DNA from: Candidatus Cloacimonadales bacterium
GTDB lineage: Bacteria > Cloacimonadota > Cloacimonadia > Cloacimonadales > JAIOQZ01
Direction of reading: 5' to 3'
DNA length: 64,000 nt
Assembly (NCBI GenBank): GCA_963665815.1
Contig: OY762463.1
Span: 1,920,001 to 1,984,000 of the forward strand
Shown here: positions 6,160 to 39,734 of the stretch, one piece after another
Layout of the letters: the number at the start of each line of letters is the position of its first letter
Numbering within the stretch: the stretch's first letter is position 1
Translations under genes and position numbers: made by a program
The notes under the pieces: model-generated
Seen by the model: only the letters and a program-made list of their open reading frames with translations
Told to the model about the DNA's origin: nothing
Database searches by the model: none

Positions 6160-6165
6160 CAATTT

Positions 6166-6638
6166 CAGATTTCATCAGCAAAATTACTGACTGAGAACTC
6201 ATTTTTTTATTTAGAATAGAATAAATCTGAAATATCATCTAAAATTCAGTGTAAAAATGTGTATTAAAAAGGACCGCTATGAGGCAGTCCTTAAAATTCT
6301 TTTTTGTAGTGCTAGTATTATCTTATAGCAAACAATTCCAATCTTTTTTCATACTTAGATTTAATCCTGAACAGTTCAGTATCACTCAAAAAATGCAAGT
6401 TGATGATATTACAGATTTCATCAGCAAAATTACTGACTGAGAACTCATTTTTTTATTTAGAATAGAATAAATCTGAAATATCATCTATAATTCAGTGTAA
6501 AAATGTGTATTAAAAAATGGACCGCTATGAGGCAGTCCTTAAAATTCTTTTTTGTAGTGCTAGTGTTATCTTATTGCAAACAATTCCAATCTTTTTTCAT
6601 ACTTAGATTTAATCCTGAACAGTTCAGTATCACTCAAA
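6166..6638. repeat. Tandem direct duplication (6166-6390 and 6412-6638) containing the nrdG 3' end and its terminator
   Basis: Two ~225-bp copies read directly; 3 substitutions and a 2-nt indel; 21-bp spacer. Confidence 0.95.
6512..6538 (-). terminator. nrdDG terminator (second copy at about 6266-6290)
   Basis: Minus strand GGACTGC-CTCATA-GCGGTCC followed by a T tract. Confidence 0.7.
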
Positions 6639-7252
6639 CTTGTTTTTTTCCTATATTCAGGATCAAGTGTATTGCTTGATTTAAACTTCTGGACATAGTA
6701 CGTTTCCTTGCCCTGGATCAATCCGGTAATTTCACCAATATCTTCACCATCAATAAGATCGTCCACAACAGTTGTACGGAATTCGTGTTTTACATTTGAT
6801 TTCAAAATAATATCTATACTCCTGAATGCATTATCAATATCGTCCGCATTTGAAGTAAACATTTTGTACTTTTTGAAACTGGATTTAATATCCATAGCTA
6901 TATAATCCAGCAGGCCTTTTTCAATCAGACTTCGGATTACTTCCGGTCTTGTCCCGTTAGTATCAAGTTTAACGAGATAGCCCATTGCTTTGATTTCCTC
7001 AATGAATTCTTCTAAGTCCGGCTGCAGGGTTGGTTCTCCACCGGTTATAGTAACAGCATCAAGAAAATGCTTTCTCTGACTTAGACTATTTATCACTTCT
7101 GCCTGAGAAAATCTGTTTTCACACTTTCCTACCAGTTGAGCATTATGACAGTAAGGGCAATTCATATTGCATCCGGCAGTAAACACTATCGCTGTCAGTT
7201 TTCCATCCGGATAATCCAGCATGGAAAACTTTTCGAAACCACCAATTATCAT
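6566..7252 (-). CDS. nrdG: Anaerobic ribonucleotide reductase activating radical SAM protein
   Basis: GCNMNCPYCHN, ITGGEPT, KLDTNG; overlaps the nrdD stop. Confidence 0.93.
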   Translation of the reverse strand: MIIGGFEKFSMLDYPDGKLTAIVFTAGCNMNCPYCHNAQLVGKCENRFSQAEVINSLSQRKHFLDAVTITGGEPTLQPDLEEFIEEIKAMGYLVKLDTNGTRPEVIRSLIEKGLLDYIAMDIKSSFKKYKMFTSNADDIDNAFRSIDIILKSNVKHEFRTTVVDDLIDGEDIGEITGLIQGKETYYVQKFKSSNTLDPEYRKKTSLSDTELFRIKSKYEKRLELFAIR

Positions 7253-11390: not shown

Positions 11391-11546
11391 AATACCTCCA
11401 AATTAATATTTTTCAGTGTGAATTTCTAAAAGACCCGATAATTAGGCAAGGAATTTTTCTATGCAGTCATATAAACTCGGTTCTTCATATTTTGCTTGAC
11501 ATTAATAGCATCGTATTTTTTTCTGCGATTCACATTAACTTTAAGC

Positions 11547-11623
11547 GCGCCTGTGGCTCAATTGGATAGAGCATCGCACTACGGATGCGAAGGTTTGGGG
11601 TTCGAATCCCTACAGGCGTGCCA
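11547..11623 (+). tRNA. tRNA-Arg (anticodon ACG)
   Basis: Acceptor stem GCGCCTG/CAGGCGT, anticodon arm TCGCA-CTACGGA-TGCGA, GTTCGAATC T-loop, encoded CCA; TTGACA at 11496. Confidence 0.97.
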
Positions 11624-11812
11624 TTTTTTTATCACTTCTATTTACTTTTCATTTATCATTAATGCAAATTCCATACCATTTACTGAAACCCTATTCAGTT
11701 TACTCTTGTATTATGCGTTCAGAGAACAAAATATTCTCTATTTAAAAACTTCTTCTGGTTTAGTAACGTAAAAAGTATTATAATAGTTTCATAATAATCA
11801 AGAGGAGTATTT

Positions 11813-12273: not shown

Positions 12274-13563
12274 TTAAAGAGCAGTATTTACAACCTTCAG
12301 TGAATCCCATGGAAAACTTTTAACTATGTTTTTAGTCTCCGGATCTAATATTGCAAAATAACACCCATCTCTTCCCTCCATCAAACCCAACAAGAGATTT
12401 CTATTGGGTATGTATTGCAGATTAAAGATTGTATTTCTTTTTTCACTGTAATTTTTCCCATTAATCTTATCTGTTAAGTCTGTTATAGTTTTTTTCTGAA
12501 AATTGATTTTATAAAGACCGGCGTGATTTGAAGAAACAATGTATTTACGTGCATCTGTTAATTTTTTTGGAGAAATTCCCATAAACATACCGAAGTGCAA
12601 TCTTGCATCTTTTCTCCTCATATCTATCTTGCAATACAATGTATCAGCATCATTTTTCTCAAAGAACAGCAACTTGAATGGTTCATTATAAACATCTAAA
12701 CCGAGAATTAAAGTTTTAAAATCTTTACAAATACCCAAACCAAACTTATACAGGCCGGACCAAATCTTCTTCAGTACTGTTTTTTTCTCTCCTGGTTCTT
12801 TAAAAGTTGGTGTCAATTGAAAAGGCCAGCTATCCAGCAGGTTGCCTTTATAGCTCATGTTTATCCGCGAAATACTCCTGTCTGTTATCGAGAACTCATA
12901 AAAACCTGATGGAAAACTCTTTCTGTTGAAAGGGTATCCATAACTTTCCTCAATATCAATCCTGTATTGCTTGTCCCCAATTATCCTGAAATATATTTTT
13001 TGGTTCTCTTCATCATACACACAATCACCCACTCCACCTAATCCATATTCAGTCAGCCGGGTAACTTTCTTCGACTTTATGTCAACTTCGAAGTAATCTG
13101 AGTTATGGATTATTGGAATTCTTCCTCCACGATCAAAAAAAATTCTCCTTGAACCCAGAAGATATATTTTTGAGTCATCGGAGTTTATGAAATAGTTATA
13201 AAATAACAAACTGTCATTTTGGAAAATCCTCTCTTTATTCGAACCATCACTGTTCATTCTGTATATTGATGGATATCCAGAAACGAAGTGGTGTTCAGGA
13301 TATGGAGCAAAGTAAATCTGTTTTCCATCATTAGAAGGCTGTATTCTAGTTAAGTGGTCATTAGATGTATAAGTATGCAACACTCTTTCATCGATGTTTA
13401 ATTTACAATATGTTAATGTTCCATTAACATCCATTGAAAAGTATGCACAGTTATCTACAATCTCAAATACACGATGATGTGTTAAAGAAAATTCAGCCTG
13501 CAGGTGTATTCTCAAAAAGATCAAAATAAGAATAGTTATTAATACTCTTAGATTCAAATTCAT
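12274..13563 (-). CDS. Exported hypothetical protein, TolB/beta-propeller-like
   Basis: Signal peptide; SNDGKQIYF, IYRMNSDGS and VTRLT PD40-like repeats; AGGAG SD. Confidence 0.6.
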   Translation of the reverse strand: MNLNLRVLITILILIFLRIHLQAEFSLTHHRVFEIVDNCAYFSMDVNGTLTYCKLNIDERVLHTYTSNDHLTRIQPSNDGKQIYFAPYPEHHFVSGYPSIYRMNSDGSNKERIFQNDSLLFYNYFINSDDSKIYLLGSRRIFFDRGGRIPIIHNSDYFEVDIKSKKVTRLTEYGLGGVGDCVYDEENQKIYFRIIGDKQYRIDIEESYGYPFNRKSFPSGFYEFSITDRSISRINMSYKGNLLDSWPFQLTPTFKEPGEKKTVLKKIWSGLYKFGLGICKDFKTLILGLDVYNEPFKLLFFEKNDADTLYCKIDMRRKDARLHFGMFMGISPKKLTDARKYIVSSNHAGLYKINFQKKTITDLTDKINGKNYSEKRNTIFNLQYIPNRNLLLGLMEGRDGCYFAILDPETKNIVKSFPWDSLKVVNTAL

Positions 13564-13652
13564 AACAGCTCCTTTAAAATGATACCTCTATTCCATTACT
13601 TCTAGTTATCTGCATTTAAAGCAATTGTAAATGATAAAAAACCATTGTGAAT

Positions 13653-14060
13653 TTACTTTATTACAACTTTATCAATCTTATAAACAAATAATCGATCTTT
13701 CACATACGTTTTAGCATGCTTGTATCCCCCGAAATAATAATCAAGATGCTTATTATAGGAAAGTCTATTATAATGCATTTCCTTCAGCTTTCGATTAAAG
13801 GTAATTAACAAGTTATGTTTACTGGAATCAACTTCCGGAAGTTCTATTGAGTACTTCTCACTATAAAATAGCCTGTACCTATCCTCAGTAATAAATAGCG
13901 GAGGATGATAAATATGCTCCAACGAACCATCAATAGCAGAGCTATTACTCCTGTACTCATATTCACTCATAAATTCAGGATTTACACATACTCGAAAAAC
14001 TGTTATTGTTAATATATAAATAAGGATAATAATTGTTATCGTAATAACATGAACTTTCAT
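13653..14060 (-). CDS. Hypothetical protein with an N-terminal TM anchor
   Basis: 135-aa ORF, GGAG SD, hydrophobic N-terminus. Confidence 0.6.
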   Translation of the reverse strand: MKVHVITITIIILIYILTITVFRVCVNPEFMSEYEYRSNSSAIDGSLEHIYHPPLFITEDRYRLFYSEKYSIELPEVDSSKHNLLITFNRKLKEMHYNRLSYNKHLDYYFGGYKHAKTYVKDRLFVYKIDKVVIK

Positions 14061-14120
14061 TTATTGATCTCCGCGACATAAATCGCAGTATTTACTGCCA
14101 AAAAAGTTTCTACCTGTCAC
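14061..14120 (-). CDS. Putative 19-aa small ORF MTGRNFFGSKYCDLCRGDQ
   Basis: TAAGGAG SD 8 nt before GTG; its TAA abuts the ATG of the next gene. Confidence 0.35.
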   Translation of the reverse strand: MTGRNFFGSKYCDLCRGDQ

Positions 14121-14218
14121 AATCCAATCTCCTTATGCCTTTGATTTTACAATATTGGATTTACTGTCAAGGAAAGGTCAAGAAAATTGTTCACATGATT
14201 TCAGTATTATCAGGATAA

Positions 14219-14247
14219 AACCACGAAATACACTAAATGACACGAAA
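14219..14247. repeat. Short degenerate tandem repeat CACGAAATA-CACTAAATGA-CACGAAA
   Basis: Read directly from the sequence. Confidence 0.6.
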
Positions 14248-14272
14248 ACAAGACTGAAAACAAAATTACTTG

Positions 14273-14560
14273 AATAATCATTTAACCCTTCTCATCATGA
14301 TCTAGTATCTTATTTGAGCAGCTAAAGTAGTACCCCCACATATAGTCCTATTCGCAATGGAACTGTCCTTGCGAAAGGTAGTATTGTTGTGTCAATCCGA
14401 AATTAACGTGGTCGACATGACCCTATATTAGACAATCGTCCGATTTTCTCTGCGCTTACAGCAGTACGGTACAAGCTCGTACAGACAAATTCCTCCCTAT
14501 TAAGGAGAGAGATTCAACTGTGTTGAATCAGAGAATCTTAATTACGAAACGATGATTATT
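14273..14560 (-). ncRNA. Candidate structured noncoding element (~290 nt), family unknown
   Basis: About 40% GC by hand count, 9-bp terminal inverted repeat, several hairpins; strand inferred from G:U pairs. Confidence 0.5.
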
Positions 14561-14564
14561 GGAC

Positions 14565-15578
14565 CTACAATATCCTGAATCCTTTTGTAGAAAATGCATT
14601 CAAATCAAGATCTGAAAATTCCTTTCTATGTAGTTTTTCAACGGCTGCCGCCCCAATCATAGCTGCATTATCTGTGCAATACTTCAAAGACGGATATATC
14701 AGCTTCACCCTCCGTTTTGCAGCTTCCTTTTCCAGACGGTTTCTAAGTTCGCTGTTTGCGGAAACTCCACCGGCAAGTACAAGTTTCTTGATTCTGTGTT
14801 TATCGAGATAGTTTAGTGTCTTATATAGAAGATTGTCCACAATACCTTTCTGTACAGATGCAGCAATATCATATTTATGCTTTTCCAGCTCTTCCTGAGA
14901 ATGGCTTTCAATGAAGTTCCTGATTGCTGTTTTCAATCCGCTGAAACTGAAGTTATAGTTATCTTTCTTCTTCATTCCGATTGTGAATGACTGATATGAT
15001 GAATCACCTTGTTTAGCCAGTTTGTCAATAATCGGACCTCCCGGATAGCCCAGTCGAAGCAGTTTTGCACTTTTATCAAAAGCTTCACCGGCTGCATCAT
15101 CAATAGTTCTGCCGACAATCTCAAATTCACGTTCGGCAGTGAAATGAGCAAGTTCGGTATGTCCACCTGAAACAACCAATACCAGATAAGGTGCAACCAT
15201 TTCATCTTTATGCTCAATCATATTTACAGCTACGTGCCCCACCATGTGATTCACAGCAATAAGAGGTAATCCCAGCCCGTACGCCAGAGATTTAGCATAG
15301 GAAACACCTACGAGTAACGCACCGATAAGTCCCGGATTTACTGATACTGCTATAGCATCAATATCATCAAAAGTAACCTGAGCTTTTTTTAGTGCAGCTT
15401 CTGTAAGGTGAACAATATTTTTCAGGTGAACCCGGGATGCAAGTTCCGGGACAACTCCTCCGAACAGTTCATGTTCCGGTTGAGAGGATATCAGATTAGC
15501 ATGCACATTATATTCTGTATCTATCACAGCAACAGAGGTATCATCACAAGATGATTCGATTGCGAGTATTTTCTTCAT
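14565..15578 (-). CDS. tsaD: tRNA N6-threonylcarbamoyltransferase
   Basis: IESSCDDT, GGVVPELASR, HMVGH, VSGGHT, DDAAGEAFDK, TDNAAMIG. Confidence 0.97.
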   Translation of the reverse strand: MKKILAIESSCDDTSVAVIDTEYNVHANLISSQPEHELFGGVVPELASRVHLKNIVHLTEAALKKAQVTFDDIDAIAVSVNPGLIGALLVGVSYAKSLAYGLGLPLIAVNHMVGHVAVNMIEHKDEMVAPYLVLVVSGGHTELAHFTAEREFEIVGRTIDDAAGEAFDKSAKLLRLGYPGGPIIDKLAKQGDSSYQSFTIGMKKKDNYNFSFSGLKTAIRNFIESHSQEELEKHKYDIAASVQKGIVDNLLYKTLNYLDKHRIKKLVLAGGVSANSELRNRLEKEAAKRRVKLIYPSLKYCTDNAAMIGAAAVEKLHRKEFSDLDLNAFSTKGFRIL

Positions 15579-25089: not shown

Positions 25090-25308
25090 CTATGGGAGCG
25101 GATCATATCCTCCTGGATTGAAAGGATTGCATCTGAGTATACGGTGAATTGTAAGATACATTGCCTTGAAAGCATTGTACTTTTTAAACGCCTGATATGC
25201 ATATTCACTGCACGTAGGCGTGAATCTGCAGCTTGGCGGCAGCATAGGTGACAAATACCTGGAGTACAGTCTGATTAATATTAAAAAGAATGAGTTTATA
25301 ATTCTCAT
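25090..25308 (-). CDS. yidD: Membrane protein insertion efficiency factor
   Basis: [24 protein letters not shown]. Confidence 0.96.
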
Positions 25309-25640
25309 ATATAATTCATTATTTTATCAAAAACGCTATCTAAGTCTTCAGTTAAATCCTGCCAGGTCTCAGCAGGATTCGCAGTTTTCGCAATGATAAC
25401 AATTCTTCTTCTGATATTTTGAATGGATTCTTCACGAGCTTTCAAATATGCCCTGATCCTTCTTTTAATTTTATTTCTGACTACAGCTTTCCCAACTTTT
25501 TTACCGGTAATTATACCGATACGGGTACTTTCAAGTTCAGTATCTTCATTCATCAAGACAGTAAAAAAATTCCCGGAAAACCTTTTGTTACTTCTGAACA
25601 ACAATTGATATTCCGGGTTTTTTTTTATAATTTCATACAT
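25305..25640 (-). CDS. rnpA: Ribonuclease P protein component
   Basis: [17 protein letters not shown] motif; synteny. Confidence 0.95.
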
Positions 25641-25774
25641 TAAACTGTGAGTCTTTTACGACCTTTTGCTCTTCTGTTGGATAATATCTTGCGTCCGGCT
25701 TTAGTTGCCATGCGAGAACGAAATCCATGAACTCTTTTTCTTCGAGTATTATGTGGTTGATAAGTCCTTTTCAT
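25640..25774 (-). CDS. rpmH: 50S ribosomal protein L34
   Basis: Missing from the ORF track. [51 protein letters not shown]. Confidence 0.97.
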
Positions 25775-32956: not shown

Positions 32957-32983
32957 TTAGCACTCTAAGATTTAGATTGACAA
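32957..32983. promoter_or_regulatory. CIRCE operator 1, overlapping the -35 box
   Basis: TTAGCACTC-N9-GATTGACAA versus consensus TTAGCACTC-N9-GAGTGCTAA. Confidence 0.8.
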
Positions 32984-33005
32984 TTTTCATGTCCGTAATT
33001 ATATT
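32977..33005 (+). promoter_or_regulatory. Sigma70 promoter of the hrcA operon
   Basis: TTGACA-N17-TATATT. Confidence 0.8.
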
Positions 33006-39313: not shown

Positions 39314-39321
39314 AAAAAAAC

Positions 39322-39349
39322 TTGACATTGAATACTAAAAAACTAAATT
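39322..39349 (+). promoter_or_regulatory. Putative sigma70 promoter of the 68-aa gene
   Basis: TTGACA-N16-TAAATT; GGAGG SD follows. Confidence 0.55.
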
Positions 39350-39373
39350 GTAAATGTAAGTCGGAGGATAGAG

Positions 39374-39580
39374 ATGCCAAAAGGTAGAACTTTCAATGCG
39401 AAACTTGCTCACGAACTGAGTACCGAAGGTAAAGTAATTTGCCCTAATTGTAATCAGGAAGTAAAAAGAATAAAGCTCGTAAGAGCCAGGAAGTCCAAAG
39501 CTGAAGGCTGGGCTCCTAAATATGAATTCGCTAAAATTTGTAAATGTAATGAAAAAGATATTTATAGCGGAAAAATTTAA
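39374..39580 (+). CDS. Small basic Zn-ribbon protein, possibly DUF4295/bL38-related
   Basis: CPNC...CKC, Lys/Arg rich; has its own promoter, SD and terminator. Confidence 0.75.
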   Translation: MPKGRTFNAKLAHELSTEGKVICPNCNQEVKRIKLVRARKSKAEGWAPKYEFAKICKCNEKDIYSGKI

Positions 39581-39612
39581 AACCTCACACCCTACATAAA
39601 ATGCCCTCCTAG

Positions 39613-39658
39613 AAAAAGCCCAATAGCCGCCCGGCGATTGGGCTTTTCTTTTTTTTTA
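39613..39658 (+). terminator. Strong intrinsic terminator
   Basis: AAAGCCCAATAGCC-GCCC-GGCGATTGGGCTTT followed by a long T tract. Confidence 0.9.
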
Positions 39659-39734
39659 TTTTTCACATTTTGAAAAAAACCATAAAATTTGTTGCATAAA
39701 AATTTCCAGTTTCAAATTATGATGTCATATTAAA

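Follow-up and report, generated by a model that had tools for sequence, protein, structure and literature searches.

Does the long stretch of DNA that follows tsaD at this locus encode a discrete structured RNA? The window, by which we mean the whole 64,000-nucleotide stretch that was analyzed, is AT-rich chromosomal DNA, in which the G+C content of 200-nt windows averages 0.355 with a standard deviation of 0.044. Pfam searches of 55 ORFs identify the housekeeping genes nrdD, tsaD, yidC and rnpA, the mreBCD region, the hrcA-grpE-dnaK-dnaJ cluster, efp and eno, as well as a Por_Secre_tail domain. The tsaD gene itself (14565..15578, minus strand, 337 aa) matches Pfam TsaD (PF00814) at 2e-90, and directly after its stop begins the longest gap of the window, 504 nt at 14061-14564, bounded by the tsaD TAG stop (14567-14565) and by a 135-aa ORF. 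The gap holds the element of the original prediction (14273-14560), an RNA of about 290 nt read from the minus strand and closed by an inverted repeat. With a probability of about 45%, we read the region as an ordinary, unusually long intergenic spacer in which generic hairpins sit on the end of the tsaD transcript, with no discrete 290-nt RNA; it is best treated as ordinary spacer and as a weak RNA candidate. The anatomy of the gap, its absent coding capacity and the chance level of its closing repeat are shown by the data below.

The raised G+C content to which the prediction drew attention is genuine. A recount over 14281-14560 gives the quoted 111/280 (0.396), and the region stands at 0.389 compared with 0.205-0.346 in the clearly noncoding gaps, with 0.425 in its core (14300-14499); the excess comes mostly from the hairpin stems themselves. 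That this is the longest gap of the window, with a G+C content well above that of the clearly noncoding gaps, weakens the case for an ordinary spacer, and so, presumably, does the expectation that an old spacer under no constraint should have drifted to low G+C in so AT-rich a genome. A gap that is both long and G+C-rich is the signature used in GC-IGR searches for structured RNAs (PMC6429828), and the region resembles the "unnamed" or low-ranking candidates as that source describes them, being a long, G+C-rich gap in an AT-rich genome with predicted structure and few or no homologues (PMC6429828). The base rates given there for five genomes call for caution over an RNA: of the long unknown gaps rich in G+C, about 40% turned out to hold known genes that had escaped annotation, about a quarter could not be classified, many encoded short peptides, and only about 20% gave ncRNA candidates (PMC6429828). 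The same work reports 31 T. lienii IGRs without homologues (Stav et al. 2019, PMC6429828).

The prediction was also right that the element contains no ORF of 60 aa or more. Its longest stop-free run within 14273-14560 is 44 codons, and each of the six frames is interrupted by 6 to 14 stops. All three stop codons are among them in every frame, which rules out a recoded gene. It is very unlikely that the G+C-rich patch is a functionless relic of foreign or decayed DNA, either a piece of an old pseudogene or a miniature inverted-repeat element that is now dead. Its G+C content of 0.39-0.425 is coding-like (the window mean is 0.355), but stops are dense in all six frames, translations of the six read-through frames have no match in Pfam or in NCBIfam at E<=1, ten stop-free fragments of the region match no family, and tblastn with the 2530 ORFs of 80 tsaD loci finds nothing above 28 bits in the region. 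With Pfam, NCBIfam, fragment and tblastn searches all negative, and no residual protein-family similarity found in any frame, the decayed coding fragment that the prediction had named as a refuting result is not seen, and its noncoding character stands.

The inverted repeat that was proposed to bound the element exists, with AATAATCAT at 14273-14281 the exact reverse complement of 14552-14560, which reads ATGATTATT on the plus strand. Its presence is at chance level. In 160/500 dinucleotide shuffles of the gap, a perfect repeat of this kind (9 bp or longer, arms 100-450 nt apart) turns up, and the 9-mer occurs 3 times in the window compared with 2.8 expected. The proposal that this repeat could close the whole fold is not borne out: the arms pair only if the RNA is cut at 14273/14560, where the mean pairing probability is 0.91-0.93, and in longer contexts the probability falls to 0.0 in 4/4 cases on the minus strand and in 3/4 on the plus strand. 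If the minus-strand RNA runs on to 14200, its 3' arm has a local partner in a U-rich tract at 14250-14272. The chance-level repeat and the zero pairing in most longer contexts favor an ordinary spacer. A 290-nt RNA closed by the inverted repeat is not supported, and neither the closing repeat nor the energy of the fold as a whole goes beyond what chance produces in an AT-rich genome.

The evidence on fold energy comes from two controls. Against shuffles, the z-score check proposed with the prediction is borderline: the 288-nt fold scores -3.40 on the plus strand, where 0/200 shuffles equal it, and -2.26 on the minus strand, where 3/200 do. Native sequence is the fairer control, and by it the 288-nt fold is ordinary, since among 664 native 288-nt windows, with energy regressed on G+C, 8.0% (plus) and 5.0% (minus) fold as well or better. 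Ten other gaps have shuffle z-scores from +0.74 to -3.04 (40 shuffles each), compared with -3.11 (plus) and -2.49 (minus) for this gap; the gap that scores -3.04 is partly coding sequence of an ORF that we take to be rpmH-like. This ordinary showing against the 664 native windows and the ten other gaps favors a spacer, which is in turn weakened by the z-scores of -3.4 to -3.6 obtained for the whole region on the plus strand and for the two 100-nt halves, each on whichever strand scores better. As a separate observation on gaps of the window, two apparent ones at 25090-25308 and 25640-25774 are small minus-strand genes: a 72-aa ORF that is presumably yidD-like, judged by the features of that family and by where the ORF sits, between rnpA and yidC, and the 44-aa ORF (MKRTYQPH...) that we assume to be rpmH-like.

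When the region is divided, its structure proves to be unevenly distributed. Domain A (14440-14539) reaches z -3.52 on the plus strand, a score that 1/200 shuffles attain, compared with -1.76 on the minus strand; for domain B (14340-14440) the values are -2.73 and -3.61, respectively; and the remaining third of the proposed element (14282-14346) is unstructured, at +0.93 and +0.63. Ranked among 3196 native 100-nt windows, domain A falls in the top 0.5% on the plus strand and 4.3% on the minus strand, and domain B in the top 1.3% and 3.3%. The plus-strand standing of domain A, with an energy residual of -12.1 that is near the -12.6 of the tRNA window, weakens the case for a spacer. Coding sequence of the same window scores as well as or better than the domains of this region.

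The individual helices of the prediction can be followed from one folding context to the next. All 14 of the 14 helix arms that it quoted lie on the minus strand where they were placed. One of the helices, GGGTA-CTA/TAG-TGCTC, lies within 14282-14346 and is discounted, as that stretch folds no better than shuffles. The TTCTCTG/CAGAGAA stem, proposed to enclose a multibranch domain, has its arms in place, and on the minus strand it does not reach a pairing probability of 0.5 in all five contexts. An overlapping 8-bp helix on the plus strand (GATTTTCT/AGAGAATC, 14442-14449/14530-14537) closes the multibranch fold of domain A, with four hairpins at 14442..14537. This plus-strand fold has a pair probability of at least 0.70 in 5/5 contexts and is the only multibranch domain that survives all five. 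Domain A is the best-supported structure of the region and, in these predicted folds, appears to favor the plus strand.

Several smaller hairpins are persistent as well. A perfect 8-bp hairpin with a 3-nt loop (GATTCAAC/GTTGAATC, 14511..14529) forms on both strands with a probability of at least 0.83 in all contexts, as does a 13-bp hairpin with two bulges (CCT-TTCGCAA-GGA/TCC-TTGCGAA-AGG, 14347..14378) with a probability of at least 0.81, each entirely Watson-Crick. A 7-bp hairpin in a GTAC-rich segment (14464..14482) forms on the plus strand with a probability of at least 0.68 in all contexts. The 14347-14378 hairpin, and 14511-14529 together with its neighbor at 14493-14509, are in the top 0.3-0.7% of 31,978 44-nt windows, and as loci 14511-14529 and 14347-14378 rank 32nd and 35th. 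These ranks, in a list where genes contain 34 of the top 40 loci, favor an ordinary spacer; the presence of two top-40 hairpins within 290 nt, compared with ~0.18 expected from 40 loci in 64 kb, weakens it. The one robust anomaly of the region is the combination of gap length, high G+C and two or three stable palindromes. Elsewhere in the window, among gaps that are truly noncoding, the second-longest is 39314-39734 (421 nt, G+C 0.33), which precedes a gene for a 1098-aa M6 peptidase with a T9SS tail. Within it lies a 44-nt palindromic hairpin that is second in stability in the whole window (39609-39652, -21.0/-21.8 kcal/mol on the two strands) and a further 44-nt hairpin at 39473-39516.

The assignment of the element to the minus strand had been argued from stems that need G:U pairs. 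The argument holds for CTCCTT/AGGGAG, GTTAATT/GATTGAC and GGGTA/TGCTC, and the plus strand has a G:U-dependent 8-bp helix of its own. The segment 14386..14425 depends on the strand: on the minus strand it forms GTTAATT/GATTGAC and GGTC/GACC, and on the plus strand, as read from the plus-strand fold, an 8-bp GTTGTGTC/GACATGAC stem with two G:U pairs. The three helices that form on both strands are uninformative about strand because they are entirely Watson-Crick, in 26/26 pairs (13 + 8 + 5). Since the plus-strand fold is at least as significant as the minus-strand fold (z -3.40 compared with -2.26), the minus-strand assignment is unsupported. The preferences of domain A for the plus strand and of domain B for the minus strand argue against one evolved RNA. 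Together with the Watson-Crick-only helices, these opposite preferences would, on the folding models, fit simple palindromes better than a single evolved RNA. The all-Watson-Crick helices, the opposite strand preferences and the unstructured 14282-14346 thus favor an ordinary spacer.

A shorter RNA deserves to be weighed in place of the 290-nt one. This would be a lineage-restricted structured RNA of ~200 nt (14340-14540) with two ~100-nt domains, absent from Rfam 15, and either 3'-UTR-derived or independent on the minus strand or else a plus-strand RNA convergent with tsaD; its predicted fold would provide stability or a protein-binding surface. Such an RNA would account for a gap that is long and G+C-rich, with neither coding capacity nor a coding relic, for the z-scores of -3.52 (domain A, plus) and -3.61 (domain B, minus), and for a multibranch fold in domain A that is stable in 5/5 contexts and in the top 0.5% of native windows, and the ~20% share of ncRNA candidates among long, GC-rich unknown IGRs reported by the GC-IGR study lends it some prior weight (PMC6429828). 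We nevertheless consider it doubtful, as the two domains prefer opposite strands, the 288-nt fold is not exceptional against the native background and coding sequence in the window scores equally well or better. Neither orientation offers a promoter-like site beyond a 9-of-12 match at 14237-14266 (plus), or a clean terminator. Should the core prove to be an RNA, it would stand for an ncRNA class of narrow distribution in a lineage that has been little sampled, and its interest would be modest unless some function came to light; at present, the value of the analysis lies in the controls.

The region matches no RNA class in Rfam 15, in line with the prediction of an unclassified RNA. At gathering thresholds, a search of the whole window returns only a tRNA (11547-11620), and at E<=10 the interval 14050-14650 gives four chance-level matches, the best at E 2.9, all at 13-18 bits compared with gathering thresholds of 55-84. 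The families covered include RNase P, SRP, 6S, riboswitches, self-cleaving ribozymes and group I/II introns, as well as HEARO, GOLLD, ROOL, OLE and raiA. The reported lack of a tmRNA is borne out by ARAGORN, which finds only tRNA-Arg in the window. The suggestion that the element might be a ribozyme gains no support, with no match to a ribozyme family in Rfam. A hammerhead-like AUGAUGAG at ~14300 was ruled out, as its first base differs from that of the hammerhead core and Rfam is silent. We also note that a 91-aa plus-strand ORF (11496-11771) overlaps tRNA-Arg(ACG) at 11547-11623 and is almost certainly spurious. Of the wider proposal of an unclassified RNA, then, what holds is that the region has no Rfam match and no coding relic; what tells against it is that the closing repeat is at chance level, one third is unstructured, the fold is unexceptional compared with native windows and the halves prefer opposite strands. 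Of the refuting results that the prediction itself had named, none was clearly obtained.

Comparison with other tsaD loci yields no relative of the region. A genome scan for tsaD gave at least 598 confirmed matches, and 80 loci were fetched, with TsaD 44-52% identical among the matches listed; the nearest TsaD among these listed matches are from Calditrichaceae (52%) and from Marinimicrobia and Latescibacterota (46-51%). Taken with the Por_Secre_tail domain, these matches suggest a member of the FCB group, one with no close relative among the loci retrieved. Against the 80 loci (779,831 nt), the best blastn match of the 504-nt gap has an E value of 1.1, and nhmmer returns nothing at E<=10. Single-sequence covariance models of domain A (plus) and domain B (minus), run over the window and the 80 loci (843,831 nt), recover only themselves, apart from two matches at E 1.1 and 3.6 that we take as chance. 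Covariation evidence for the ~200-nt RNA is absent because no homologue was found. In the 20 of the 80 loci that were inspected, the next ORF follows tsaD at -11 to 302 nt or the contig ends, and a comparable ORF-free gap occurs in 0/20. Long stretches after tsaD in two loci (L007 and L038) that had seemed ORF-free are really open frames of 376 and 195 codons. A search of 12 of the 80 loci (FCB-type) with Rfam finds one tRNA beside tsaD and no other RNA. The lack of an Rfam match, of a second copy and of a homologue in 780 kb of tsaD loci favors an ordinary spacer, as does the count of 0/20 inspected loci with a comparable gap.

The prediction had also raised an RNA-based mobile element, for which we find no support: there is no second copy in the 64-kb window (by repeat search, and by blastn against the masked window, where the best match is 19 nt at E 0.32), and no mobile-element genes. 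The plasmid collection holds no match to the region, and the phage collection a single 26-nt match (E 0.1) that we take as chance. Pfam finds no reverse-transcriptase, transposase or integrase family among the 55 ORFs of the window, and no adjacent gene for a reverse transcriptase, TnpB/IscB or a recombinase, as would mark a retron or an IS guide RNA. For a mobile element one would look for multiple copies and a target-site duplication, and neither was found within the 64 kb. No direct repeats flank the inverted repeat, the flanks being ...ACTTG and GGACC..., and terminal repeats such as a miniature inverted-repeat element carries are no better than chance here (160/500 shuffles). An integron attC-like ATTCAAC...GTTGAAT was ruled out, as the arms are only 3 nt apart and no integrase is present.

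The same evidence bears on the very unlikely view of the patch as a relic, here as a dead element. The two genes on the 3' side of the gap (12274-14060; 429 aa and 135 aa) have hydrophobic N-termini and no Pfam family, and in Calditrichia loci a ~715-aa gene stands directly after tsaD in their place, so that from sequence comparison the locus 12274-14060 looks lineage-specific. With these two lineage-specific downstream genes, which match no Pfam family, and only 6 weak relatives of the 135-aa ORF, the locus looks like a variable island, and terminal inverted repeats do exist. Against a relic, the inverted repeat is at chance level and lacks flanking direct repeats, a second copy is missing from the 64 kb and from the plasmid and phage collections, and the window has no transposase or integrase gene.

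A different kind of explanation comes from a 23-aa ORF (MIIQVILFSVLFSCHLVYFVVLS, 14210..14281, minus strand), the first 9 nt of which are the repeat arm 14273-14281. It begins with ATG, with an SD-like GAAGGG 4 nt upstream. By analogy with type I toxin systems, the functional unit might be this membrane-peptide gene, with the structured stretch as a long leader and the Shine-Dalgarno site and AUG masked by pairing, a layout like that of hok, tisB, dinQ and zorO, in which a plus-strand antisense RNA would be the possible antitoxin; we judge this distinctly unlikely. The ORF lies within the noncoding gap and its peptide has a GRAVY of 2.27. Its SD duplex (-6.1 kcal/mol) is in the range of the calibration genes that have a recognizable SD (8/12; -5.6 to -11.1), the other 4 lying at -0.9 to +2.0. 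Of the 551 ATG ORFs that are 18-45 aa long, both strands included, no other combines GRAVY>=1.8 with SD<=-6, thresholds that were chosen after the ORF had been seen. Among the 775 ATG ORFs of 15-60 aa, 4 have a GRAVY>=2.27 and 37 an SD<=-6. The T-rich minus strand gives hydrophobic codons by chance, and with this and the post hoc thresholds the 23-aa ORF is a lead and no finding.

Type I toxins are described as hydrophobic peptides of <60 aa whose mRNAs are held inert by structure (PMC5668327), which speaks for the 23-aa gene. As in the mRNAs of hok/sok, tisB/istR-1, dinQ/agrB and zorO/orzO, as far as that source describes them, the gap contains an intergenic hydrophobic ORF of <60 aa, a long structured untranslated stretch upstream of it and a start region predicted to be paired (PMC5668327). 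A hydrophobic ORF of <60 aa with a ribosome-binding site is thus present, by thresholds set post hoc. The start region is predicted to be mostly paired (mean unpaired probability 0.30-0.39). Unlike in type I toxin mRNAs, the leader plays no part in the masking predicted here, which is local; the partner of the SD/AUG is predicted to be a downstream U tract inside the ORF. The pairing of the repeat arm is lost once the RNA extends beyond 14273, and no upstream minus-strand promoter was found. On the plus strand, the sole promoter-like site found by the promoter scan, the 9-of-12 match at 14237-14266, is antisense within the ORF. No homologue or second copy of the ORF was found, 23 aa being too short for protein searches. 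It is rather unlikely that the core (14340-14540) belongs to a lineage-restricted RNA class outside Rfam, placed at the 3' end of tsaD, with a five-way-junction domain and a hairpin-rich domain, perhaps coupled to a masked 23-aa peptide gene just downstream. Type I systems are not known from this branch of the bacteria; were the small ORF to encode a type I toxin, their range would extend to such a group.

We return to the ordinary spacer and to the signals that would delimit its transcripts. After tsaD, the terminator scan picks up a weak terminator-like site on the minus strand (14492..14512), a 5-7-bp hairpin (CTCC.../...GGAG) with the tail AATTTGTCTG, 53-75 nt past the tsaD stop. The near-perfect palindromes, tens of nucleotides past the stop codon, and the one hairpin with a T-containing tail found by the scan resemble intrinsic terminators or 3'-UTR stabilizing hairpins; unlike in intrinsic terminators, the tail is weak and the hairpins are spread over ~200 nt with no single compact site. 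The clear terminators of this genome (6538-6519, 9594-9568 and 605-583) have strong U tracts near stop codons, and the U tract at 14512-14492 is much weaker than theirs, which weakens the case for a spacer. As an observation on the first of these, a tandem repeat with a 248-nt unit (6162-6638; 1.9 copies, 97% matching) follows the 4972..6159 gene and reaches into the 3' end of a radical-SAM (nrdG-like) gene at 6566..7252, and one copy holds the strong terminator 6538-6519.

The downstream end of the gap has a gene and a candidate start signal of its own. The 135-aa ORF (13653..14060, minus strand) has a hydrophobic N-terminus and GGAGA 8 nt before its ATG. It has no family match in Pfam or NCBIfam, and a search of 1.84 billion representative proteins returns the protein itself and 6 weak relatives (25-36% identity, E 5e-7 to 8e-4) that are about as long. 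The ORF is thus probably a genuine gene of sparse distribution, served by a promoter of its own and preceded by a short leader. A promoter-like TTGACA, 15 nt, TAAAAT (14144..14170, minus strand) was read from the sequence upstream of it; the promoter scan does not list this site because its spacer range is 16-18. No comparable promoter was found by scan or by reading on the minus strand upstream of the element, and neither a promoter nor a clean terminator was found that would delimit a transcript of it. The terminator-like hairpin after tsaD, and the promoter-like site and Shine-Dalgarno site before the 135-aa ORF, favor an ordinary spacer. Read in this way, the minus strand would pass from the end of tsaD at 14565 into an untranslated tail with near-perfect palindromic hairpins, of which those at 14511-14529, 14493-14509 and 14347-14378 may act as a leaky terminator or as barriers at the 3' end and to processing. 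The U-rich tract would come after these hairpins, followed by the sigma-70-like promoter (14170-14144), which may be active, and by a short leader and the Shine-Dalgarno site for the 135-aa gene.

A canonical sigma-70 promoter occurs in the same organism before hrcA (TTGACA-17-TATATT, 32977-33005). TTAGCAC words at 32957 and 33014 flank it, and these may be diverged CIRCE operator half-sites.
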